From: an uncultured delta proteobacterium
GTDB taxonomy: Bacteria; Desulfobacterota; Binatia; UBA9968
Direction: 5' to 3'
Assembly: GCA_963760795.1 (NCBI GenBank)
Contig: CAVXEP010000001.1
Location: 64,001 to 128,000, forward strand
DNA: 64,000 nt
In this document: positions 35,973 through 50,114 of the stretch, piece after piece
How the letters are laid out: each line of letters starts with the position of its first letter
How positions within the stretch are numbered: position 1 is the stretch's first letter
Made by a program: the position numbers and the translations under genes
The notes under the pieces: model-generated
The model's database searches: none
What the model saw: only the letters and a program-made list of their open reading frames with translations
What the model was told of the DNA's origin: nothing

Positions 35973-36827
35973 ATGACTATTCGCTCGTTCGATTTACTCC
36001 AACCGCGATCCTTGGCCGAAGCCGTGGAGCTTTTGCATAAGCATGGCGACGACGCCCGCGCCATTGGCGGCGGCACGACCCTGGTTATTCTGATGAAGCA
36101 GCGCGCGCTGCACTATCCCTACTTGGTCGATTTGCAGACGATTCCGGGGCTGAATCACATCACCAAAGAGAATGACGGCATACGCATCGGCGCTCTGGCG
36201 ACCCATCGCATGGTCGAGCTGTCGCCGGTCATTCGGCAAGCTGTCCCCGTGGTCGCCGAGGCGTTCAGCCATATCGGCAACGTGCGCGTGCGTCAGACGG
36301 CGTCGGTTGGCGGCAATCTCGCCCATGCCGATTATCGTTTGGACCCGCCGCCGCCCTTGTTGGTTCTTGACGCCCAAGTCTCGGTCTTCGGCGCCAACGG
36401 CGCGCGCACGATTCCGCTCAAGAGATTTTTCCGCGGCATGTATGAAACCGCGCTGGAGCCAGGCGAGATTCTCTCCGAGGTATTCATTCCGCAGCTGCCG
36501 GTAAACGGCAAAGCGGTCTACCTGCGTTACAACGCATTGTCGGCCAATGATTGGCCTTGTTTGGGCGTGGCGGCGTTCATGCGGAAGGACAGTGGCCGGT
36601 GTCAGGAACTCCGTCTCGCGCTCGGCGGCGTGGCGGCTACGCCGCTGCTGATCTCCGGATTGGAATTCGCCAACGACCAGCTGGTCGACACCGGCTTGGT
36701 TGATCGGATTCTCGCTGCGGTGGACGAGCAGATCTCGCCTTCTGCAGATTTGCGCGGCTCGGAGTGGTACAAGCGCCGCATGGCTCGGCTGTTTACTCAA
36801 AAGGCGATTGCGCAGTTGAACGGATAA
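35973..36827 (+). CDS. Xanthine dehydrogenase-family FAD subunit (CoxM-like)
   Basis: IGGGTTL, VRQTASVGGNLAHAD, DLRGSEWYKR. Confidence 0.92.
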   Translation: MTIRSFDLLQPRSLAEAVELLHKHGDDARAIGGGTTLVILMKQRALHYPYLVDLQTIPGLNHITKENDGIRIGALATHRMVELSPVIRQAVPVVAEAFSHIGNVRVRQTASVGGNLAHADYRLDPPPPLLVLDAQVSVFGANGARTIPLKRFFRGMYETALEPGEILSEVFIPQLPVNGKAVYLRYNALSANDWPCLGVAAFMRKDSGRCQELRLALGGVAATPLLISGLEFANDQLVDTGLVDRILAAVDEQISPSADLRGSEWYKRRMARLFTQKAIAQLNG

Positions 36828-36831
36828 ACCC

Positions 36832-39162
36832 ATGGCAAATTTCGCAGTGGTCGGACAATCGGTTTATCGCAAGGACGCCAACCCGAAGGTTACGGGACGG
36901 GCTTTGTACGTCGGCAATATCGATATGCCGGGTATGCTTCATGTCGCGGTATTGCGCAGTCCGTATCCTCACGCGCGCATCGCGCGCATCGACAAATCCA
37001 AGGCCGAGGCGCTGAGCGGCGTGGCGGTGGTAGTCACGGGCGCCGAGATCGCCAAGATGCCGGGAATCGATCCCCACTTCGGGCCGGCGTTTCGCGACCA
37101 GCCGATTCTCGCCGTGGAAAAAGTCTGTCATGTCGGCGATCCGGTGGTCGCGGTGGCGGCGGTCGATAAGCGCACGGCCGAGGACGCCTTGCAGTTGATT
37201 GAAATTGACTACGATCCGTTGCCGGCGGTTTTCAATGTGCTCGATGCCGTCACGGAACAGTCGGCGCTGGTCCATGAAGTACACCGGCCGGCCAAAGCGT
37301 TCGCTGATCTGGCTCATGTCCAGGCCGGCCAAAAGTCCAATATCTGCTATCAGTTTAAACTTCGCTTGGGCGACGTCGATAAGGCCTTCGCTGAAGCCGA
37401 CCGGGTGTTCGAAGATCAGTTCACTTCGCCGCCGGCGCAGCATGTGCCGATGGAGCCCCATGTCACGCTGGTCTATCTCGACGAGCATGAACGGGTAAAC
37501 ATCTGGACCGCCAGCCAGTCGCCATCGTATGTGCGCACGGAGGTGTCGGCGACCTTTGGCATCCCGATGCACCGGATTCGCGTGCGTGTGCCTTATCTCG
37601 GCGGCGGTTACGGCGCAAAACTTTACGCTAAGCTGGAACCGCTGGTGACGCTTCTAGCGCTGATCACAAGGAAACCGGTGCGTTACACGTTGACGCGAGA
37701 AGAGGAGTTCCTGACCGTCACCAAGCATGGGGTGGTGACCAAGATCAAGACGGCGCTCAAGAACGGCGCGATCACGGCGCGCAAGTGCGAGGTCTATTGG
37801 GACACCGGCGCCTATGCCGAGATCGGCCCGCGCATCGGTCACAAATCGGGTTACACTTCCGCCGGGCCCTACAAGATCCCAAACGTTTGGATCGACTCTT
37901 ATTGTGTGTACACGAACAAGGTTCCCGCCGGCGCCTTTCGCGGTTTCGGTGTGCCGCAGGTTATATGGGCGTACGATTCGCAGACTGACATGATCGCGCG
38001 CGCCCTCGGTGTCGACCCCGTCGAATTTCGTCTCCGGCCGATGCTTGACGAAGGCGAGGCGTTCGCCACCGGCACGTTGGTGAAGTCCTTCGGTATTAGA
38101 CAGGCGACCCTTCAAGCCGCCCAATCCATCGACTGGTCGAAACCGCGCACGGCCCAATCCGGCACCAAGTTTCGCGGCAAAGGCATCGCCGCCGGCGTCA
38201 AAGCGGTGCTCACGCCGTCGATTTCGGGCGCGATCGTGATTCTCAATGCCGACGGCACGGCCAATGTCTTGAGCAGTACGGTGGAAATGGGCCAAGGGTC
38301 GGAGACGACCATGAGTCAGATCGTCGCCGAGGAGTTGGGCATCGCCGCCGACGAAGTCCATATCGTCCAGCCCGACACCGATGTCACGCCTTACGATACC
38401 ATTACCGCCGGCAGCCGCTCGACTTACCATATGGGCAATGCAGTGCGCATGGCTGCCGCCAAGGTCAAGGCAGCACTGTGCGATGTGGTGGCGTCAAAGC
38501 TCGAGGTCGATCCCGACGATCTGGCTGCGGGCAAGGGGCGCATTTACGTCCGCGGCCTGGAAGAACGCGGCATGACCATCGGGCAAATTTTTTTGGCCAA
38601 GTTTGGCAGCCTCGGCACCACTCTGGCGGCCGAAGCGGTTTGCCAGCCGAGCGCGGCCCATATGGATCCCGAAACCGGCCAGTCTGAGAAGTGCACGGAG
38701 TACTGGTTCCCGTCGGCGACCGCCGCCGAGGTCGAGGTTGACACCGAGACCGGGCAGGTCAAAGTGCTTCAACTGGTGAGCGTCGGCGATACTGGGACTT
38801 CGATCAACCCGCGCCATTGCGAGCAGCAACTGCAAGGAGCTGCGCTCATGCACCTGGGACTCACTATGTTCGAGGAGATGATTTTCGAGGACGGACAGCT
38901 GGTCAATGGCTCACTGCTCGATTACCAAATCGCTTCGATCAAAGATATGCCGGAAGCGGTCCGTCCGGTGGTAATTCAGGTGCCTCATGAGGACGGGCCG
39001 TTCGGCGCCAAAGGGGCCGGTGAGACCGGTGCCCTAACAGTGGCGCCGGCGATTGCCAACGCGATCCACGACGCCGTCGGTGTGCGCATTCGCGACTTGC
39101 CGATCACGGCGGAACGGGTGTTAAGAGCGTTGGCAGAAAAAGACCAGATGGCGCGGGGTTAG
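36832..39162 (+). CDS. Xanthine dehydrogenase-family molybdopterin subunit
   Basis: LRSPYPHA, GGGYGAK, AFRGFG, EMGQG, GAKGAGE. Confidence 0.93.
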   Translation: MANFAVVGQSVYRKDANPKVTGRALYVGNIDMPGMLHVAVLRSPYPHARIARIDKSKAEALSGVAVVVTGAEIAKMPGIDPHFGPAFRDQPILAVEKVCHVGDPVVAVAAVDKRTAEDALQLIEIDYDPLPAVFNVLDAVTEQSALVHEVHRPAKAFADLAHVQAGQKSNICYQFKLRLGDVDKAFAEADRVFEDQFTSPPAQHVPMEPHVTLVYLDEHERVNIWTASQSPSYVRTEVSATFGIPMHRIRVRVPYLGGGYGAKLYAKLEPLVTLLALITRKPVRYTLTREEEFLTVTKHGVVTKIKTALKNGAITARKCEVYWDTGAYAEIGPRIGHKSGYTSAGPYKIPNVWIDSYCVYTNKVPAGAFRGFGVPQVIWAYDSQTDMIARALGVDPVEFRLRPMLDEGEAFATGTLVKSFGIRQATLQAAQSIDWSKPRTAQSGTKFRGKGIAAGVKAVLTPSISGAIVILNADGTANVLSSTVEMGQGSETTMSQIVAEELGIAADEVHIVQPDTDVTPYDTITAGSRSTYHMGNAVRMAAAKVKAALCDVVASKLEVDPDDLAAGKGRIYVRGLEERGMTIGQIFLAKFGSLGTTLAAEAVCQPSAAHMDPETGQSEKCTEYWFPSATAAEVEVDTETGQVKVLQLVSVGDTGTSINPRHCEQQLQGAALMHLGLTMFEEMIFEDGQLVNGSLLDYQIASIKDMPEAVRPVVIQVPHEDGPFGAKGAGETGALTVAPAIANAIHDAVGVRIRDLPITAERVLRALAEKDQMARG

Positions 39163-39166
39163 ATTC

Positions 39167-39649
39167 ATGAAGCGCGAGATTGCACTGAGAATCAATGAGC
39201 AGGAGGAGCGCATTACCATCGACGACGCCGACACGCTGCTCGAAGTCTTGCGCGAGCGCTGCAAGTTGTGGAGCGTGCGCGAAGGTTGCGGTGTCGGCGC
39301 CTGTGGCACTTGCACGGTGTTGCTTGACGGCAAGCCGGTGAGCTCGTGCCTGCTGCTTGCTGCGCGTGCCGCCGGCTGTGACATTCTCACAGTCGAAGGC
39401 TTAAGCGAAGGTGAGTCACTGCATCCGATTCAGCAGGCTTGGGTCGAAGAGCGCGCGTTGCAATGCGCCTACTGCACGCCTGGCTTCGTGCTCTCGGTCA
39501 AAGCCCTGCTCGAAGAGAACACCGATCCAAGCGATGACGAGATCCGCGAATATCTTGCCGGCAATCTCTGCCGCTGTGCCGGCTATGCCGATATCCTGCG
39601 CGCGGTCCATGCGGCGCGTGTGAAGCTTAAAGCTACAGTCAATTGCTGA
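39167..39649 (+). CDS. Xanthine dehydrogenase-family 2Fe-2S subunit (CoxS-like)
   Basis: GCGVGACGTC, QCAYCTPG, NLCRC. Confidence 0.95.
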   Translation: MKREIALRINEQEERITIDDADTLLEVLRERCKLWSVREGCGVGACGTCTVLLDGKPVSSCLLLAARAAGCDILTVEGLSEGESLHPIQQAWVEERALQCAYCTPGFVLSVKALLEENTDPSDDEIREYLAGNLCRCAGYADILRAVHAARVKLKATVNC

Positions 39650-42966: not shown

Positions 42967-42992
42967 AAAAAAAGCCGGGAGACTGCTCCGGC
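42967..42992 (-). terminator. Intrinsic terminator after the GrdB-like gene
   Basis: GCCGGAG-CAGT-CTCCCGGC followed by T7 on the minus strand, just past stop 43007. Confidence 0.8.
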
Positions 42993-43006
42993 CATGCTCG
43001 TCGTAG

Positions 43007-44311
43007 TCAAACTTCGGTCGGTTTGTCAGCTTTGCTCTCCAACGACGCCAGCGCTTTTTCCATCAATGCGATGCGCCAGCGCCGTTCTTCCTCGGCGGGC
43101 AGCTCCGGCTGGCCGACCGGATAATGAAACTTATTGCCGCCGACGATTCTGCCGACGCCAACTTGCGCGGCGACGTTGGCCAGGCAGGTGATGAGCACCA
43201 CCGGGATTCCTTGTTTCTCAATTTCTTTTGCGATCGTAGCGCCGCTACGCGTGCCGGTGCCTCAGGTCGCGGTCAAGATGACGGCGTTCACACCGGAGTT
43301 CGCCAGTTCCCCGGCGATGCCGGCGCCGAGCTCAGCCATCTTGCTCGGCATCGCGCCGGTGCCGGTGGTGACGAAATAGCGCTCGTGAAGTTTTTTGAAG
43401 CGTTGGTTCTTCTCCAGCTGGCGCATCGCATCCAGCGGCACAATGCGGTCGGGATCTTCATCCACCATCGAGGTGTCGTAGCCAGTATGCATCGCTGCGA
43501 ATTCGCCGCACTTCAAATCGTCCAGCCCGGCCAGCGAATATTTGAAATAACGTGAGCCGCGCGAGCTTTCGAGCCGATCCGGATTACCCTTGGGCACGAG
43601 ACCGCCTTCGGTGACGAGAGCCACCGTGGCGTCTTTCAAGCTGCCGGTTAGATTGGGAATCATGTGCCGCGCGGTTGTGATGAGCGGGATCTCGCTTTCG
43701 TAGGTTTCGCCGTTAAGCTTGGCGAGCATGAGATCGACGGCGCGGACATAATCCGGCTTGGCGGTTCTGACGGTGAAGCGGCGTGGAATCGGCAAGCAAT
43801 GCTCGGCGCGGAAGGCTTCCGCGCCGGCTGGGTCTTGCGCTATTAACAGTTCGACCAGCGCTGAAAAGCGTTTTGCCGCCTCCGCCATGGACGCCGTGGA
43901 GGCGCCGGTTTGCACGACGAATACTTGGCGGCCGATCTCCTGTGTGCCCGGATTGTTTTCATGCATGCCGGTGATTGCCGGAATACGCCAGTTGTCGCGC
44001 ACCCAGCTGCACGCCTTGGCGCAGGCGATACCGTAGCGGCCGGCGTTGAAGGCTGGGCCGGCCAGGAAGAAATCGGGCTGAAACCGGTCGATGGCGGCGC
44101 GCATCGATTGCAGTGCTTGCTCTTCTTGTTCATGAAAGTAGTTGTCGCCGCAGGCCAGCGTTGCATACTCGACGCCGCGCTGCTGGAAACTCCTTTCGAT
44201 TTCAACTCCGATACCGACCGCCTGCGGCAAAAATATAACTTCCTGCCCGGCCTTCTCTTCGCCGCCGATGCCGGCGAAGAACTGATTCAAATAATGGAGC
44301 ACTTTGATCAT
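43007..44311 (-). CDS. Glycine/sarcosine/betaine reductase selenoprotein B-like (GrdB family), Sec350, 434 aa
   Basis: LNQFFAGIGGEEKA, CGDNYF, AGPAFNAGRYG, GGLVPKGNPD; VILTAT-TGA(43262-43264)-GTGTRSGATIAKEIEKQGIPVV continues in frame to 43007. Confidence 0.93.
43235..43249 (-). promoter_or_regulatory. Candidate SECIS hairpin of the GrdB-like gene
   Basis: mRNA CGUAGC-GGC-GCUACG, a perfect 6-bp stem beginning 12 nt after the UGA. Confidence 0.75.
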
Positions 44312-44322
44312 GTCGTTCCTCT

Positions 44323-45612
44323 CTAGTTTTCATAGACCGCGCGAAAGCCGCTCATGCCCATTTTGCTGTAGGAACCGAAGAAAATCGTCGGGTCGAAGAG
44401 AAAAGGTTCACGCGCGTCATGGCGCGCTTTCAAGTGGAGGTCGATCTCAGGCCCGCCGATGACACTTTCCAGTGGTGGAATATAAATCTTCTCCGAAACA
44501 TTACCGCGGCTGATCATGCCATCGGCCTCTGCCGGATGATCGACCAGCGGCCGCTCGTAGCCCTTGGGTCCGTTGGATTCATGCAACACCGCGGCGGTCT
44601 TGATGCCTTCATCTTCGCATGCTTTCACGGTTTGCATGAAATCGACGGTGCCGTTGCCGGTGCCTTCCATGAAAGCCAGCGCGCCGTCGGCGCCCAAATT
44701 TTTTGCCAGCCGCGCCACCCACAGGCCCATTTTCTTTTTCTGCTCGAAGCTGTCGTTATAACCGCGCGAAAGAATCACACCGCGAAAGTTTATGCCCCTG
44801 CCGTGGCGGTTGAGCAATTCCCATATAAACGGATTGTCGCAATGCAGCGACGTCGGCACCTTGCGTTCGCTCTTAAAGTTGCCGCTGACCAGCGCGCCGT
44901 CGAAAAATTCCGCCGGATGGACGAATGTCGGCAGCGTCCGTGAGATTTCTTCGCCATAGTAAAATGTCCGGGCGCAGCGCACTTGGCTTTGTACTTGGTA
45001 GATCAAGACGACTTTGGGCAGACTCGCGTCTGACCGCAGTGAGCGCAATCCTGTGGCGCTGCGGGCGCGGCGTGGTGCTTTTCCGCTTGCGGCAATAAAG
45101 CGCGCGCAGCGCAGCGCCATGAGCCGGAGCGCTTGATCGAAGCCGGCATTGGAGACCGACGCATCGGCAGTTAGCGATAGCACCAGATGAAAACAATCCG
45201 AGCCGTAGGAGTATGGGGCGCCGACGCCGGTCATGTCGAGAATCCCCTCGCGCTGTTTCTCGATGGGAGTCAATTCGTCGAAATGAGGGAAGCGGCCGGC
45301 GACGGTGATGAGCAGGTTGCGAATTCGCACTGTCTGTCCCGTTCCCACGAGAGCTGCGGGACCGTCGAATCCCGGAAAAGTCGAGCCGCCACCGGAGAGT
45401 TTGGCGATCGGCAGGACCGTGTCGAGCACATGGACGATGCGCTTGGCTTCGCCGGGACGAGCGAGTTCGAAATCAACCCCGATGCCGTGACTAAGGTCGT
45501 CGATTTGCTTTTCAAGCTCGGCCCGGCAGAGCGAGAGGGCGGCGCCGTCAAGCCGCGTGCGCTCGCCCCATCCGAGATCTCCGATTGAATAATCGAGCAG
45601 TTCCAGTTCCAT
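44323..45612 (-). CDS. Glycine/sarcosine/betaine reductase component B partner subunit (GrdE/GrdI family)
   Basis: MELEL start; ELARPGE, REGILDMTG.GA.YS, LPKVVLIYQVQSQ, HPAEFFDGALVSGN, LGADGA, EG.GN; ends 11 nt upstream of the GrdB-like gene. Confidence 0.88.
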   Translation of the reverse strand: MELELLDYSIGDLGWGERTRLDGAALSLCRAELEKQIDDLSHGIGVDFELARPGEAKRIVHVLDTVLPIAKLSGGGSTFPGFDGPAALVGTGQTVRIRNLLITVAGRFPHFDELTPIEKQREGILDMTGVGAPYSYGSDCFHLVLSLTADASVSNAGFDQALRLMALRCARFIAASGKAPRRARSATGLRSLRSDASLPKVVLIYQVQSQVRCARTFYYGEEISRTLPTFVHPAEFFDGALVSGNFKSERKVPTSLHCDNPFIWELLNRHGRGINFRGVILSRGYNDSFEQKKKMGLWVARLAKNLGADGALAFMEGTGNGTVDFMQTVKACEDEGIKTAAVLHESNGPKGYERPLVDHPAEADGMISRGNVSEKIYIPPLESVIGGPEIDLHLKARHDAREPFLFDPTIFFGSYSKMGMSGFRAVYEN

Positions 45613-45725
45613 CGCGCGATCCTTTCGACAAACGGAACGCTCGATGTTTATCGCGGCAGCAAGCTTGGTGTCAATGCAGTTCGAATCACTCCGATGCGGG
45701 TGCCGCAATGCCAGCAGGGTATTTC

Positions 45726-47054
45726 TTAAAATCGCGCGTCGACCCATTTCGCCACGTAGTCGAAAAAGTTTTTCACCGAATTGGAATATTGCCCCTTGGT
45801 TTTCTCGCACTCCGTGCATGGCGTGATGCCGTGGGTGGCGCCTTCGATGGTGATGAAGTCCTTATCCTTGCTCCTGGCGACCTCGTAGTGGATCTCATTG
45901 TCGCGGATAAAGTAATGGCCGCCCATGGCGCCGAAGAGGACCGGCACGGAAATCTGTTGCAGGGCGCAGACGGTGGAGTTGTTGCTCGAGCAATGGTCGA
46001 TGCCGTCGAGCGAATTGGTCGCGCGCACGGCATTGGCGCTCAAGAACGAGCGCACGGTGAGAAACAGCGTGCCGCCGTCGAAGGTAGAGTTCTGCTTGGC
46101 AATATCGGGCACGGCTACGCGCACACTGTCGAGCATGCAGCAATCGTCGATACTGCCGTCGTTTTTGAGCAGCCGGCGCGGCGCGCTGGTGCTGCGCAGA
46201 ATGCTCAGGTCGAGCTGAAAGAGTTTGGCGGCGTCACCGCGGGGCACGATGAACGGCGCGTCGTCTTTCGGGTTTGCACTCGCTTCGATGCGGCGGAGTT
46301 TTTCCACTGCCAAGTCGATCAGCCGGTTCATGCGCTTGGCCTGTCCCTCGAAGTAGGTTTTTTTGAACGCCTCAGAATAGTGCGATGGACCGTTGGGGTT
46401 GTAGCCGTTCTTGGCATCGAAGGGGTCCAACTTCGGGTCGATCTTGGGCGCTTTGTTTTCGTTGATCATCGCGGCGTCGTTGATGACCGCGGGATTTAGA
46501 TTTCTCACCCCGGCGATGACCGGATTGCCTGGGTGGGCATCGCGAAAAATAATCCCGTCCGCCGGCGGCAATCCGGCGAGCTCGTTGCCGCACTTCAAAA
46601 TTCGCTGCGGCGCCTGGCAGTAGGCGACGCCGTTTTCGGCGACGGCTTGATAAAAACTCATGGTCGGCCCGCCGCCGCTGCCGCCGAGCAGCAAGACTTT
46701 GGCGATGCCGGCTTGCTTGCGCAGGAAGTTGACGCCGGATTTCACATCGAGAGCGATCTGGTCCCACTTCACCATGGCTTCGTTGTTGTCCGAGCGCGGA
46801 TTTAAGCACAGCACCATGTAGCCGCGCTTGGCGAGTTCAGTGCATGCAAGACTGCCCATAACGTTGCCAGTGCGATGCACGACCAAGATGCCCACCCGGG
46901 CGGCCGGCAATGGCGGATCGGGTTTGTACAGCGCGCCTTTTACCGCGGGTGGCGCGAACTGGATGTAGGTCGGATTACTTTGCGCGTGGGCGCGCTGAAC
47001 GGCGACAGACGCGATGAGTGTGAAAAAAATCATTTGAAACCGGCGCATGTTCAC
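45726..47054 (-). CDS. Secreted alpha/beta-hydrolase-fold protein
   Basis: Signal peptide ending AHA; GGSGGG nucleophile elbow; IEGATHG C-terminal His. Confidence 0.75.
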   Translation of the reverse strand: MNMRRFQMIFFTLIASVAVQRAHAQSNPTYIQFAPPAVKGALYKPDPPLPAARVGILVVHRTGNVMGSLACTELAKRGYMVLCLNPRSDNNEAMVKWDQIALDVKSGVNFLRKQAGIAKVLLLGGSGGGPTMSFYQAVAENGVAYCQAPQRILKCGNELAGLPPADGIIFRDAHPGNPVIAGVRNLNPAVINDAAMINENKAPKIDPKLDPFDAKNGYNPNGPSHYSEAFKKTYFEGQAKRMNRLIDLAVEKLRRIEASANPKDDAPFIVPRGDAAKLFQLDLSILRSTSAPRRLLKNDGSIDDCCMLDSVRVAVPDIAKQNSTFDGGTLFLTVRSFLSANAVRATNSLDGIDHCSSNNSTVCALQQISVPVLFGAMGGHYFIRDNEIHYEVARSKDKDFITIEGATHGITPCTECEKTKGQYSNSVKNFFDYVAKWVDARF

Positions 47055-47210: not shown

Positions 47211-47268
47211 GGAGCGCGGGCTTTCTAGCCCGCGTTGCTGATTTTGCGGACAGGGATGTCCGCGCTCC
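47211..47268. repeat. GGAG-type REP-like element
   Basis: GGAGCGCGGGCTTTCTAGCCCGCG...GCGGACAGGGATGTCCGCGCTCC; homolog of 7467-7521. Confidence 0.75.
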
Positions 47269-47336: not shown

Positions 47337-48821
47337 TTACTGCTCCGGCGATGCCGGGAAAATCAAAGACTTGATGACCACCGGCACGGCGCCGGAGGAT
47401 TGAATGAGCGCGCCGACATCGATGAAGTCGAAGTCGCTAAGCGCAATGCCGTCGATGGAGATGATCGCGCTGTCCAACTTCAGCTCTTCCTGGCAGTGCA
47501 GGCCGATGATGCCGCCGATGTCGCCGTCGTTGACCAAAACCAGCGGATGGCCTTTGGCGAGAATGTCTTTGAGACCTTCGGCCACGCCGCTGCAAAACGC
47601 TTGCAGCCGCGCGAAGGTCGCTGAGCCTTCCCAATGAAATGCTACGGCGACCGGCTGGCGGCCGTGCAGCATATCGAGGCGCCGCAGCGCGCTGAGCAAT
47701 CCGTCGCGCACGGCATCCTTGGTGAATTCTTCCTGACCCAGCGGGAACTCGGGCGCAACCACGGCGATGTTGCGCACCGGCACGGCGTCGTCAGGCATGA
47801 TGAAGATGGTGTTGCCGCTCACTTGCACGGTGTATTGAGACGCGCCGATGACGGTGGCGCGGATGCGCGCGTTGGGTTCCATCATCAGCAGGCCCAAGTT
47901 GCCGGCGCGTTTGTGCACTTCCTCGGCGATCAGCGGCCCCAGGTCGCCAAAGCTGGTCTTGGCGCGACTGTAAATAAATTCCGAGACGCCGCCGGAAAAC
48001 ATCACGCAATCGATCTCGCCGGTGTAGCTTAGCGGCGGCATGCGCAACAAGCTCTTGAAACCGTCGTCGATGGCCGATGGTTTCAACATGGCGAACAGCT
48101 TGTCGACCATGCCGGAGACCATTTTGCGTAAATTCTCTTCGGGAATTTTCTCGCCCATGGCCACCGAGAAGCCGGCCCAGCCAGCATGCTTGCGGGCGGC
48201 TTCTTCGATGCGCACGATGACACCGTCTTTGTCGAAGGCGAGCAGGCGGGCGCCGATGTCGATGGCCGATACTTCCTGGACTTTACCGTTGTTGCAGATC
48301 GCGAACTTGCTGGTGCCGCCGCCGATGTCGATGTTCAAAACTACGCCACCCATTTTCGCCGAGTGGGCTACCGCGCCCGAACCATGGGCAGCCATGGTCG
48401 CCTCAAGGCCGTCGCCGGCGCTGACCGCGACGAACTTACCGGCTTCCTGGGCGAACAGCTCGCCGATGGCGCGGGCATTGCGCCGACGCACGGCAACGCC
48501 GGTGAGGATCAATGCGCCGGTGTCGACCTGTTCGCGGCTAATTTTCGCGATCTTATATTGGTCGTTGATGAACTTGCCCAATGCTTCGACATCGATTCTC
48601 GTGTCATCGACGTAGGGCGTCAGGAGGATTTGCGATTCATTTATAACCTCGCGCTTGGTCACCCGGTAGCGCGACCCTTCGAGGGTCAGTTCGAGGCGAG
48701 AGAAAACCAGATGGGAGGTCGACGATCCAATGTCGACGCCGACGCTGGTGAGCCGTAGGTTTTCTTCATCCTGCATGTGGCGGTTGGCATTGGAAAACGA
48801 ACCTCTAGGTGCGGTGGCCAT
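47337..48821 (-). CDS. EutA-like reactivating factor (ASKHA ATPase)
   Basis: SVGVDIGSSTSHLVFSRL, GALILTG, LNIDIGGGT, FSGGVSE, IRATVIGASQYT, VPVVIKSLIF. Confidence 0.9.
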   Translation of the reverse strand: MATAPRGSFSNANRHMQDEENLRLTSVGVDIGSSTSHLVFSRLELTLEGSRYRVTKREVINESQILLTPYVDDTRIDVEALGKFINDQYKIAKISREQVDTGALILTGVAVRRRNARAIGELFAQEAGKFVAVSAGDGLEATMAAHGSGAVAHSAKMGGVVLNIDIGGGTSKFAICNNGKVQEVSAIDIGARLLAFDKDGVIVRIEEAARKHAGWAGFSVAMGEKIPEENLRKMVSGMVDKLFAMLKPSAIDDGFKSLLRMPPLSYTGEIDCVMFSGGVSEFIYSRAKTSFGDLGPLIAEEVHKRAGNLGLLMMEPNARIRATVIGASQYTVQVSGNTIFIMPDDAVPVRNIAVVAPEFPLGQEEFTKDAVRDGLLSALRRLDMLHGRQPVAVAFHWEGSATFARLQAFCSGVAEGLKDILAKGHPLVLVNDGDIGGIIGLHCQEELKLDSAIISIDGIALSDFDFIDVGALIQSSGAVPVVIKSLIFPASPEQ

Positions 48822-48917
48822 GGAAATCCTTACGGGTTTAAATTGGTTCGGCGTCGAGAGTCTAGAGTCTGGCGTCAAGCCAAACCCTAGACCCCAGGCG
48901 CTGGATGCGAGACGAAT

Positions 48918-50114
48918 TTAGTAAGAGTTCTTGTAAAGATCGGGTTCCATGCGCGATTTGGCGCCGACCTTTTCGAGGGTTTCCTCGAATTCTTTACGCA
49001 GGTACGGATCTTCTTCGTTGTACGGGATCGCGGTGCCGCCGTCTTTCAAGTCGATGGCGCCGTAGTCGATGCCCTTTTCGCCGGGCTTGCCGCGATCGCG
49101 CCCAGGCGCGTTGGGACCGAACCAGGCCGTGAGACGCAGCGGCTCTTTGCTGGCGCCAAAGTGAGCGTGGAACCAATTGCCGCTCATCGGCGCGGCGCTG
49201 ACCATGCCCACCGGTTCATAGTCCTGTCGTCTAATTTTTTCCGTCGTGCCTTTTTCCCAGGGGTGCATGCCTAATTCTGACGGCCAGGTGTAGGTATATC
49301 CTTTGCCGCTGAGGCAAATTAGCACGGCGGCGGAGCCATGCGCATGCGCCTTCGAGTAACGGCCGGTTTCATGCTGGCCGATCCACATGTAGAATTGCTG
49401 GCCAGCCATGTGCGGCTCGATACGCCGGTAACCCGGCGAGCGCCGGTTATCCATCGGCAATTCGCAGGACATCACGTCGGGAATGATGTTGGTCTGGCGC
49501 ATGGCGAGACCGCGCAGCGGATCGGGTGTCACTTCTTCTTTGTACTTGTAATAATCGTCGCTCGGATCGAAACGATCTTTGAAGTGATAGGGGCAATTGA
49601 AAATAAAATCGTCGTTGCCGAAATTATTCATAACGTTCGGCGCCGTGGTGCCGCCCAATAAGAGCGCCGGGCTGGAAGTCGCGTTAACAATTCGGTGGGT
49701 CGCGTTCATTGGAATGGCAAACATCGAACCTTTTTGCCACTCGAAGGTGATCTTCTTCGGATTGCCGTCGATCCACACTTCCGTGGTGCCGCGGCCGTCG
49801 ACGACGAGGTATTGTTCTTCGTACAAATGCTTTTCGGGATTCAACGCGCCGGCGCCGGGAACCTCAACAACGTAGCAGCCCCACAAACCTTCGGTGCCCA
49901 GTAGCTGAATAAAGGTGCCGTTGCCGCCCATGCGTTTCCACGGCTTGCGCGGCAAATCCTGTACGCGGCGCACGCCGATGTCACGATAGATCGGAATACC
50001 CTGCGACTCCATGTAGTTGTCGTAAGGCGTGTTTGGCCGGAGAAATTTTCCATAGCCTGCCCGGGTCTTATTATCCGTCGGTTCCTGAAATGCTTGCTCA
50101 GCGGGATGATCCAT
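48918..50114 (-). CDS. Bicupin protein
   Basis: Two cupin modules (EKHLYEE...PMNATH; KAHAH...WFHAH); GGAGG RBS. Confidence 0.85.
   Translation of the reverse strand: MDHPAEQAFQEPTDNKTRAGYGKFLRPNTPYDNYMESQGIPIYRDIGVRRVQDLPRKPWKRMGGNGTFIQLLGTEGLWGCYVVEVPGAGALNPEKHLYEEQYLVVDGRGTTEVWIDGNPKKITFEWQKGSMFAIPMNATHRIVNATSSPALLLGGTTAPNVMNNFGNDDFIFNCPYHFKDRFDPSDDYYKYKEEVTPDPLRGLAMRQTNIIPDVMSCELPMDNRRSPGYRRIEPHMAGQQFYMWIGQHETGRYSKAHAHGSAAVLICLSGKGYTYTWPSELGMHPWEKGTTEKIRRQDYEPVGMVSAAPMSGNWFHAHFGASKEPLRLTAWFGPNAPGRDRGKPGEKGIDYGAIDLKDGGTAIPYNEEDPYLRKEFEETLEKVGAKSRMEPDLYKNSY

Follow-up and report, generated by a model that had tools for sequence, protein, structure and literature searches.

The 64,000-nucleotide stretch analysed here, called the window below, comes from an uncultured Binatia bacterium (GenBank assembly GCA_963760795.1, contig CAVXEP010000001.1, positions 64,001 to 128,000 of the forward strand). 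On its minus strand, at 43007-44311, it carries a gene for a GrdB-family selenoprotein. The predicted selenocysteine (Sec, U) is followed by Gly and Ser at the two sites where Firmicutes-type enzymes carry Cys, and the GrdE-like partner encoded next to it has Phe in place of the Cys that we take to be the pyruvoyl precursor of canonical GrdE. We consider it probable that the pair forms a Sec-dependent, pyruvoyl-independent protein B module, which would act on a substrate other than glycine or sarcosine and would feed GrdA and GrdC.

A GrdB-family gene with an in-frame TGA codon

With TGA translated as U, the frame at 43007-44311 (-) starts with ATG and runs over 434 codons, with U at codon 350 (43262-43264) and 84 further codons up to a second TGA, which is the stop. 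An ordinary list of open reading frames (ORFs) gives the 349-codon piece at 43262-44311 (-) alone. The whole product matched the Pfam family GRDB (PF07355) with 361.2 bits (cut-off 22) and the NCBIfam family TIGR01918, 'glycine/betaine/sarcosine/D-proline family reductase selenoprotein B' ('various_sel_PB'), with 371 bits (cut-off 65.45). An AlphaFold2 model calculated from 44 sequences reached a mean predicted local distance difference test (pLDDT) score of 91.3. The surroundings of the selenocysteine read VILTAT-U-GTGTRSG-ATIAKEIEKQGIPVV (context LTAT-U-GTGTRSG-ATIAKEIEK), where position +3 is Gly353 (GGC, 43253-43255 (-)), position +6 is Ser356 (AGC, 43244-43246 (-)) and position +8 is Ala358 (GCT, 43238-43240 (-)). 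In the Firmicutes-type enzymes both +3 and +6 are Cys, the latter encoded by UGC.

Codons 350-430 (81 codons) were compared with 11 orthologs and differed 141, 86 and 385 times at the first, second and third codon position, respectively. Because change is biased toward the third position and none of the 11 orthologs has an in-frame stop, the stretch after the UGA is predicted to be translated and to be under purifying selection. A GC-rich terminator-like hairpin (GGCCGGAG-CAGU-CUCCCGGC, then U7) follows 13 nt past the stop codon at 42967-42993 (-), with a folding energy of -21.1 kcal/mol (z -2.31). A simple promoter/terminator scan missed this hairpin, probably owing to its bulged stem, and the matches of that scan were no more numerous than in shuffled sequence. 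A sequence-only reading of the window had described a GrdB-like selenoprotein with an in-frame TGA at codon 350, a stem resembling a selenocysteine insertion sequence (SECIS), 84 more residues and a terminator. Each of these elements was recovered at its place, and both profile matches bear out the family assignment.

The motif bases are genuine and covary with the SECIS hairpin

The motif bases are no error. All four codons (TGA, GGC, AGC, GCT) were found without a difference in contigs from two soil-metagenome runs of different studies (X1 record 1, covering 43230-43264, and X2 record 15, covering 43233-43382), one of which may be the source sample. Other short contigs at the same place carried three to four differences, whose positions are not all listed, and in some runs parts of the stretch were left without contig cover; neither observation counts as evidence here. 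The 14 closest loci are 64-94% identical to the window gene, and all 12 that reach the site read UGTGTRSG with AGC and GCT, as do two Dehalococcoidia loci at 41-43% identity. The 14 other UGTGTRSG sequences all stem from separate assemblies, and the exact DNA pattern occurs in at least 120 metagenome contigs. A protein-cluster search gave more than 100 clusters at 74-97% identity, nearly all ending at 348-349 residues, and one full-length database record with W at the TGA site, followed by GTGTRSG. Sequencing error was considered as the origin of the motif and was ruled out by the orthologs from other assemblies, the contigs from two studies and the compensatory stem pairing described below.

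Two further observations concern records of this gene. A 362-residue protein fragment of 74% identity (P0050) has Arg at the Sec position and then GTGTRSG, which may reflect a read error or a change of TGA to CGA. In a rhizosphere metatranscriptome (run X15), contigs matched three parts of the gene within 43558-44267 with zero to two differences, a weak hint of expression for which DNA carry-over is a possible source.

The predicted SECIS apical hairpin, CGUAGC-GGC-GCUACG, occupies 43235-43249 (-) and starts 12 nt past the UGA. It lies inside a match to Rfam SECIS_4 (RF01990) at 43224-43261 (-), which scored 34 bits (E 1.5e-5), below the gathering score of 38. The folding energy of the single 76-nt SECIS stretch was no better than that of shuffles (z +0.78), and hence the support for the hairpin is comparative. 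It comes from an alignment of 60 nt around the UGA in 81 family members (window, 77 loci and three paralogs of the same genome), from which a Cys homolog was excluded. In this alignment 99% of the cells of the 6-bp stem are paired, and RNAalifold predicts the identical stem. The observed pairing or covariation was reached by none of 500 shuffles, and sliding the partner columns abolished pairing. Pair 25-33, which joins base 1 of the +6 codon to base 3 of the +8 Ala codon, is never broken: of the 80 distinct rows, 45 have U-A and 35 have A-U. The neighbouring pair 24-34 is U-A in 53, C-G in 26 and A-U in one row, again with none broken. Wherever TGA-bearing rows have Cys at +6 the codon is UGC with Ala GCA, and wherever they have Ser it is AGC with Ala GCU; all 36 Ser codons are AGC, and UCN does not occur.

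Because the Cys/Ser state at +6 switches three times on the tree described below, compensation would have occurred more than once, or would have been reversed. The SECIS hairpin co-evolves with the Cys/Ser codon, and the RNA stem thereby restricts which residues can take the place of the +6 Cys: as judged from the pairing, the codon would be limited to xGC, that is to Cys, Ser, Arg or Gly, of which Ser is perhaps the least drastic change that the stem tolerates. The excluded Cys homolog, from a Bathyarchaeota metagenome-assembled genome (MAG; L076:269-1528), is the single Sec-to-Cys case among the sampled rows. It has TGT at the site and TGT GGA GCC as downstream codons, its stem is not kept, and it is a natural control for the SECIS pairing. 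It had been claimed from the window alone that the Ser codon pairs with the Ala codon GCU in the stem and that this speaks against a sequencing error. The argument is sound, since the pairing is part of a family-wide compensatory covariation, and the GGC and AGC codons in the contigs of the two soil-metagenome runs agree with it.

The thiol-free motif marks a separate clade

The family was sampled by a homolog scan with one genome per species, of which the best 80 of 544 matches to an alignment of this genome's own paralogs were used, a sample biased toward relatives. A tree was computed by maximum likelihood from 82 rows, namely 78 loci of at least 400 residues, the window protein and three paralogs; two fragments, L023 and L030, were excluded. 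Of the 82 rows, 81 have TGA at the homologous site. All 15 UGTGTRSG rows, with Gly at +3 and Ser at +6 throughout, fell on one side of a branch with a support of 97 in the SH-like approximate likelihood ratio test (SH-aLRT), or 96 without the eight motif columns, and the 13 Binatia-type rows group with support 100. Whether UxxGxxS defines a clade had been raised by the sequence-only reading, and within this sample it does form one group.

The remaining rows read UGTCTRCG (27 rows), UGTSTRSG (18), UGTCNRCG (5), UGSCNRCG (4), UGSSTRCG (3), UGTCSRSG (3) and UGTGTRCG (2), and five motifs are singletons with one row each. The +6 Cys is replaced by Ser in 36 of the 82 rows, and both Cys are absent in 33; all five GrdB-like paralogs of the genome have Ser at +6. 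Near Sec, U350, R355, G357 and A358 are invariant across 44 diverse members. On this distribution, UxxCxxC appears to be a trait of the Firmicutes-type branch and not of the family. The idea of a non-canonical, thiol-free site thus stands as far as the motif itself is concerned, whereas it is not peculiar to this gene, given that a second thiol-free clade, UGTSTRSG, exists and 33 rows are thiol-free. This uncharacterised second clade, to which two paralogs of the genome belong (L002, L003), resembles the window clade in having no thiol at +3 or +6, the AGC/GCU hairpin, partners without the Cys and the same host organisms. It differs by its separate branch (38% identity) and by Ser instead of Gly at +3.

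The window protein did not reach the cut-off of any profile for a characterised enzyme. It scored 331.1 bits for GrdB (TIGR01917, cut-off 602.2), 378.2 for GrdF (NF040794, cut-off 800), 360.5 for GrdH (NF040795, cut-off 775) and, over residues 204-402 only, 87.9 for PrdB (TIGR04483, cut-off 300). These equivalog scores lie below those of all other clades scanned, and a control from Anoxynatronum (L090) passes TIGR01917 with 714.6 bits. A GrdH-like sequence from Anoxynatronum sibiricum (L090b; 757 bits against 775, its last residues missing at the contig end) falls within the Firmicutes-type UGTCTRCG branch (SH-aLRT 93), far from the window clade, and keeps both Cys. Grouping with the characterised Grd enzymes, which would have spoken against the sequence-only reading, was thus not seen. 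According to passages of PMC9751293 (Nobu et al. 2022), GrdB follows the residue pattern ...AHGGxD[QTAP]x8RV[IL]PxD...TxGNxTxV, and a GrdF pattern is given as well. The window protein matches the N-terminal part and fails the C-terminal parts of both patterns as given there; over the C-terminal half of the GrdB pattern it reads MHTGYDT...RIVPLD...TTGTGA.

We also searched 41 related genomes of the same genus and order, of which five are single-contig and 97-99% complete and one (G004) is flagged as unpublished. TGA is present in every GrdB-like match that spans the site. Among the 24 other genomes of the genus, 17 have an ortholog of the window gene with at least 62% identity, and no such ortholog was found in the genomes from the other two families of the order.

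Two members of the wider family deserve separate mention. A locus in an Armatimonadota MAG (L093:6001-7284) scored 621.7 bits for GrdB (cut-off 602), yet reads UGTDTRCG with Asp at +3, and its partner retains the 'SGNC' Cys; even a glycine-type enzyme can apparently do without the +3 Cys. The fifth GrdB-like paralog of the genome (G000:C4:155457-156750; L005/L006, L106) reads UGTCTRSG; its coding sequence is split over two frames and contains a TAG. As a DDE transposase gene lies about 1.5 kb away, this paralog probably represents either a pseudogene or a frameshift in the assembly.

The partner subunit lacks the pyruvoyl-precursor Cys

The GrdE-like partner gene (PF09338, 305.7 bits) lies at 44323-45612 (-), counted from the probable start M70 of a longer ORF at 44323-45819. 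A GrdE-like gene adjoins the GrdB-like gene in all 13 clade loci with enough upstream DNA. In canonical GrdE the Cys of 'VSGNC' is presumably the pyruvoyl precursor. At the aligned site the window partner has Phe (44875-44877 (-); F315 of the ORF, F246 from M70), and Tyr or Phe occupies this site in the 13 remaining clade partners (14/14 together). Partners in other environmental clades are likewise without Cys at this site. Among the partners of UGTCTRCG genes, Cys is present in 27 of 28, the single exception being the putative GrdI of L090 with Phe ('SGSF'). Passages of PMC10298544 list a primary reference for GrdE as a proprotein with a Cys-derived pyruvoyl group, and passages of PMC10838667 state that GrdI and FarE are not proproteins. 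Judged by its Phe, the window partner would be unable to form a pyruvoyl group from the 'SGNC' residue.

GrdA and GrdC are present and GrdD was not found

The genome encodes Sec machinery, with SelB (410 bits) and tRNA-Sec (76.7 bits) both above cut-off. Its one GrdA (PF04723, 172 bits) carries C-F-V-U (CxxU) with one in-frame TGA, and GrdC (NF040746, 536 bits, cut-off 450) lies directly beside it, the two genes together occupying G000:C13:157087-159122 (L102:9964-12005). Together with seven GrdE-like genes and five GrdB-like genes that all have an in-frame TGA, this set agrees with the layout of 'many B modules, one A and one C' that passages of PMC10838667 describe for Cloacibacillus. Among the 41 related genomes, 37 have a GrdB-like gene, mostly in several copies with one TGA each, 34 have GrdA with TGA and 30 have GrdC above cut-off.

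Protein C has two subunits, of which GrdD bears the acetyl-thioester thiol. GrdC is present here and GrdD (NF040747) was not found, the best match in this genome (89% complete) reaching 24.5 bits against a cut-off of 350. GrdD was above cut-off in none of the five further non-Firmicutes genomes, all of which have GrdA, and in all three Firmicutes controls. With the result for the related genomes given below, this suggests a form of the system that lacks GrdD throughout the lineage.

Predicted structure and proposed mechanism

In the AlphaFold2 model, U350 lies in a short loop between a strand (343-347) and a helix (351-366), and +3 and +6 are predicted to fall within the first turns of this helix. 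We assume that this loop-then-helix arrangement is the one known from CxxC-type redox sites. Cys376 ('ITCL'), just past strand 371-375, is kept in all 13 Binatia-type rows (window counted) and is Ala in the two Dehalococcoidia rows; it is a candidate substitute thiol. The window protein has no sequence relatives in the PDB. A Foldseek search with the model gave generic two-lobed alpha/beta matches (periplasmic sugar-binding, GT-B) with query-normalised template modelling (TM) scores of 0.17-0.21 and root-mean-square deviations above 16 A, and these fold matches support no functional conclusion.

We propose that the U350-bearing subunit pairs with the adjacent GrdE-like subunit as a substrate-specific protein B module of a soil Binatia-type bacterium. 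The U350 selenolate would attack the substrate, and the resulting Se-alkyl intermediate would be handed on to the genome's one GrdA (CxxU) and from there to GrdC. Because there is no thiol at +3 or +6, no internal selenenylsulfide step would take place in the B subunit. The substrate would be neither glycine nor sarcosine, and on the sequence evidence such a difference is likely because the pyruvoyl precursor is missing, the equivalog tests failed and the clade is separate. It would probably carry a leaving group that does not need a Schiff base, as in a betaine-like quaternary amine or another X-CH2-R, of which the betaine-like amine can be suggested only tentatively. We infer both the chemical steps and the nature of the substrate.

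According to the sequence-only reading, the missing thiols imply a different mechanism or substrate. For the substrate this is likely in view of the cut-offs and the separate clade; for the mechanism, a difference in kind from clostridial protein B at the Sec is plausible and no more. That at least a third of the sampled family does without the flanking Cys speaks for an accessory role of these residues. Their conjectural role is protection of Sec from oxidation in passages of PMC6778437 and a contact site for GrdA in passages of PMC13188914. Stronger hints of altered chemistry are the partner without the pyruvoyl-precursor Cys and the failure to find GrdD across the lineage.

Several points weigh against a protein B module that feeds GrdA and GrdC. 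GrdD was above cut-off in none of the 41 related genomes, and because it was not found, the canonical hand-off to acetyl phosphate may be absent here. The grouping of the two Dehalococcoidia rows with the 13 Binatia-type rows is subject to a long-branch warning; it is independently backed by the partner genes, which have a common 'VSGNY' and a one-residue gap. Conserved neighbours beyond the GrdE-like/GrdB-like pair were not found in the clade loci, so that no consistent substrate clue emerges, and transport genes stand beside the orthologs at some loci only. What Sec does in protein B has itself not been settled, according to passages of PMC10298544 and PMC13188914. Finally, the clade is uncharacterised, and both the enzyme function and the insertion of Sec are predictions.

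Genomic neighbourhood

Genes for an ATP-binding cassette (ABC) permease and binding proteins, the latter of the SBP_bac_8/6/1 and SBP_bac_3 kinds, were found beside the orthologs at L022, L025, L026, L029 and L032. The paralog loci of the genome (L002 on C20, L003 on C13, L004/L005 on C4; L103-L106) adjoin genes for NMT1/SsuA-type solute-binding proteins. This suggests imported small polar substrates and nothing more specific. In the loci examined, neither grdA nor grdC ever adjoins a GrdE/GrdB pair.

A 442-aa ORF at 45726-47054 (-), possibly co-transcribed with the pair, matches Hydrolase_4 only weakly (E 0.0026), has no PDB relative and was not found by tblastn in the clade loci. Further upstream, at 47337-50114 (-), lie a EutA-like gene (PF06277, 384 bits) and a gene for a 398-aa cupin-domain protein, and the terminator scan placed a hairpin with a T-run at 47215-47234 (-), between the EutA-like gene on one side and the 442-aa ORF and the GrdE/GrdB unit on the other. 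The EutA-like, cupin and 442-aa genes were dropped as functional context, as they are not conserved beside orthologs and the hairpin sets the EutA-like gene apart; the contig of the closest relative ends at the gene, so its upstream genes are uncheckable. Genes of the xanthine-dehydrogenase family (FAD-binding, molybdenum cofactor-binding and 2Fe-2S) lie within a few kb of GrdE/GrdB-like pairs at three loci, namely in the window (35973-39649 (+)), in a Dehalococcoidia clade member (L053:2088-4388) and at a paralog locus (L103:12323-15377). This proximity may be chance or a metabolic link.

Alternative explanations

A decaying or truncated gene would account for the motif if the TGA were a true stop, the 349-residue product inactive or a pseudogene, and the Cys lost under relaxed selection. 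Gene callers do end nearly all homologs at 348-349 residues, one paralog of the same genome is frameshifted, and a motif-less B component was interpreted in this way in passages of PMC6778437. However, the frame stays open with mostly third-position change over the 81 codons from the TGA in all 11 orthologs, the SECIS stem is preserved by compensatory changes, TGA and motif are kept at 64-94% identity and in Dehalococcoidia, and SelB and tRNA-Sec are encoded in the genome. With the RNA-library contigs over parts of the gene adding a weak hint, we regard decay as extremely improbable. The gene could also encode a functional betaine reductase of the GrdH/GrdI type for glycine betaine or a close quaternary amine, in which the Cys changes have no mechanistic bearing. 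Neither the window partner nor the partner of the GrdH-like gene of Anoxynatronum sibiricum (L090) has the 'SGNC' Cys, passages of PMC10838667 describe GrdI as a subunit that is no proprotein, and the permease and binding-protein genes at the five ortholog loci named above would fit. This explanation is nevertheless unlikely, as NF040795 gave only 360 bits against 775, the GrdH-like sequence sits inside the Firmicutes-type branch with both Cys kept, and the SBP_bac_8/6/1 and SBP_bac_3 proteins are not betaine-specific.

Another possibility is a module independent of GrdA and GrdC. D-proline reductase works without these two proteins and forms no acyl phosphate, according to passages of reviews. 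By analogy, the substrate would be attacked by Sec, and the selenoether would be resolved by an external dithiol or an own thiol, for example Cys376, so that a reduced product leaves. The distribution of GrdD (0/41 related and 0/5 other non-Firmicutes genomes against 3/3 Firmicutes controls), the GrdE/GrdB pairs that never lie beside grdA or grdC and the Cys376 of all 13 Binatia-type rows agree with such a scheme. On the other hand, GrdA (34/41) and GrdC (30/41) co-occur with GrdB-like genes (37/41), and we know of no other role for GrdA and GrdC. Cys376 is Ala in the two Dehalococcoidia members, and TIGR04483 (PrdB) reached 88 bits against 300. Taken together, we judge independence from GrdA and GrdC to be rather improbable and prefer the protein B module that feeds both.

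Comparison with known systems

The literature treats UxxCxxC after Sec as required for GrdB, GrdF and GrdH. In passages of PMC6778437 the motif is attributed to Wagner et al. 1999, and a motif-less copy is called a likely pseudogene. The window motif is U-GT-G-TR-S. Large conserved clades that retain Sec without both Cys mean that the family can do without the flanking thiols, a point of relevance to the unsettled function of Sec in protein B. As the UGA makes gene callers end such genes early, annotators may throw them out. Family membership is already known, since NCBI names close homologs by the family-level 'selenoprotein B'. Compared with the literature searched, the clade-defining and widespread thiol-free motif, its SECIS covariation and the Cys-less partner where GrdD was not found appear to be new. 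Our searches found no literature linking Binatia or Binatota with Grd terms, the primary papers of the Andreesen group and PDF supplements being outside their reach. Passages of PMC9751293 describe a filtering of homologs by the GrdB motif, which the window protein fails, and the supplementary tree of that paper may show such clades.

Soil Binatia and similar lineages do not count among the classic Stickland fermenters. The results point to an abundant group of uncharacterised soil selenoenzymes, with several paralogs, GrdA and GrdC per genome and no GrdD found. It is conceivable, although we put this forward with reserve, that these represent a distinct selenoenzyme class in soil Binatia and similar lineages (Dehalococcoidia, Rokuibacteriota, others). 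Such a class would consist of several interchangeable GrdE/GrdB-like modules with GrdA and GrdC and no GrdD, and would reductively break C-N, C-S or C-X bonds in compounds other than glycine, sarcosine and betaine with downstream chemistry unlike acetyl-phosphate formation. Its joint marks would be a Sec site free of thiols, a partner without a pyruvoyl group and the missing GrdD.

Among described systems, FarB/FarE of Cloacibacillus porcorum (NF053623), which passages of PMC10838667 present as the proposed B module of a fluoroacetate reductase, is a GrdB/GrdE-like pair proposed for a non-amine substrate with no Schiff base. By this description, on which the comparison rests, FarE is not of the proprotein type, as would hold for the window partner too. 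The window partner scored 99.4 bits for FarE (cut-off 675), and no antiporter or radical-SAM gene stands beside the window pair, unlike at the FarB/FarE locus. GrdI, the betaine reductase partner of GrdH, is similar in that the putative GrdI of L090 and the window partner both have Phe at the 'SGNC' site, a residue from which neither could derive a pyruvoyl group. Because GrdH keeps UxxCxxC and sits in the Firmicutes-type branch, the Cys-less partner states of GrdI and of the window clade are probably of separate origin. Canonical glycine reductase differs from the window system in the Cys of its partner and in GrdD, which was not found in the window lineage. GrdB (TIGR01917), GrdF (sarcosine) and GrdH (betaine) of Peptoclostridium acidaminophilum and Acetoanaerobium sticklandii differ from the window protein by UGTCTRCG instead of UGTGTRSG, with 35-43% identity between the window protein and Firmicutes-type members. 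They belong to the same Pfam and NCBIfam family of about 430 aa, have Sec at the same alignment column, the same SECIS hairpin and the invariant R355, G357 and A358, and share with the window protein the N-terminal YxNx6GGE...CGD...GPxFNAGRYG, an adjoining GrdE-family gene and GrdA and GrdC in the genome.

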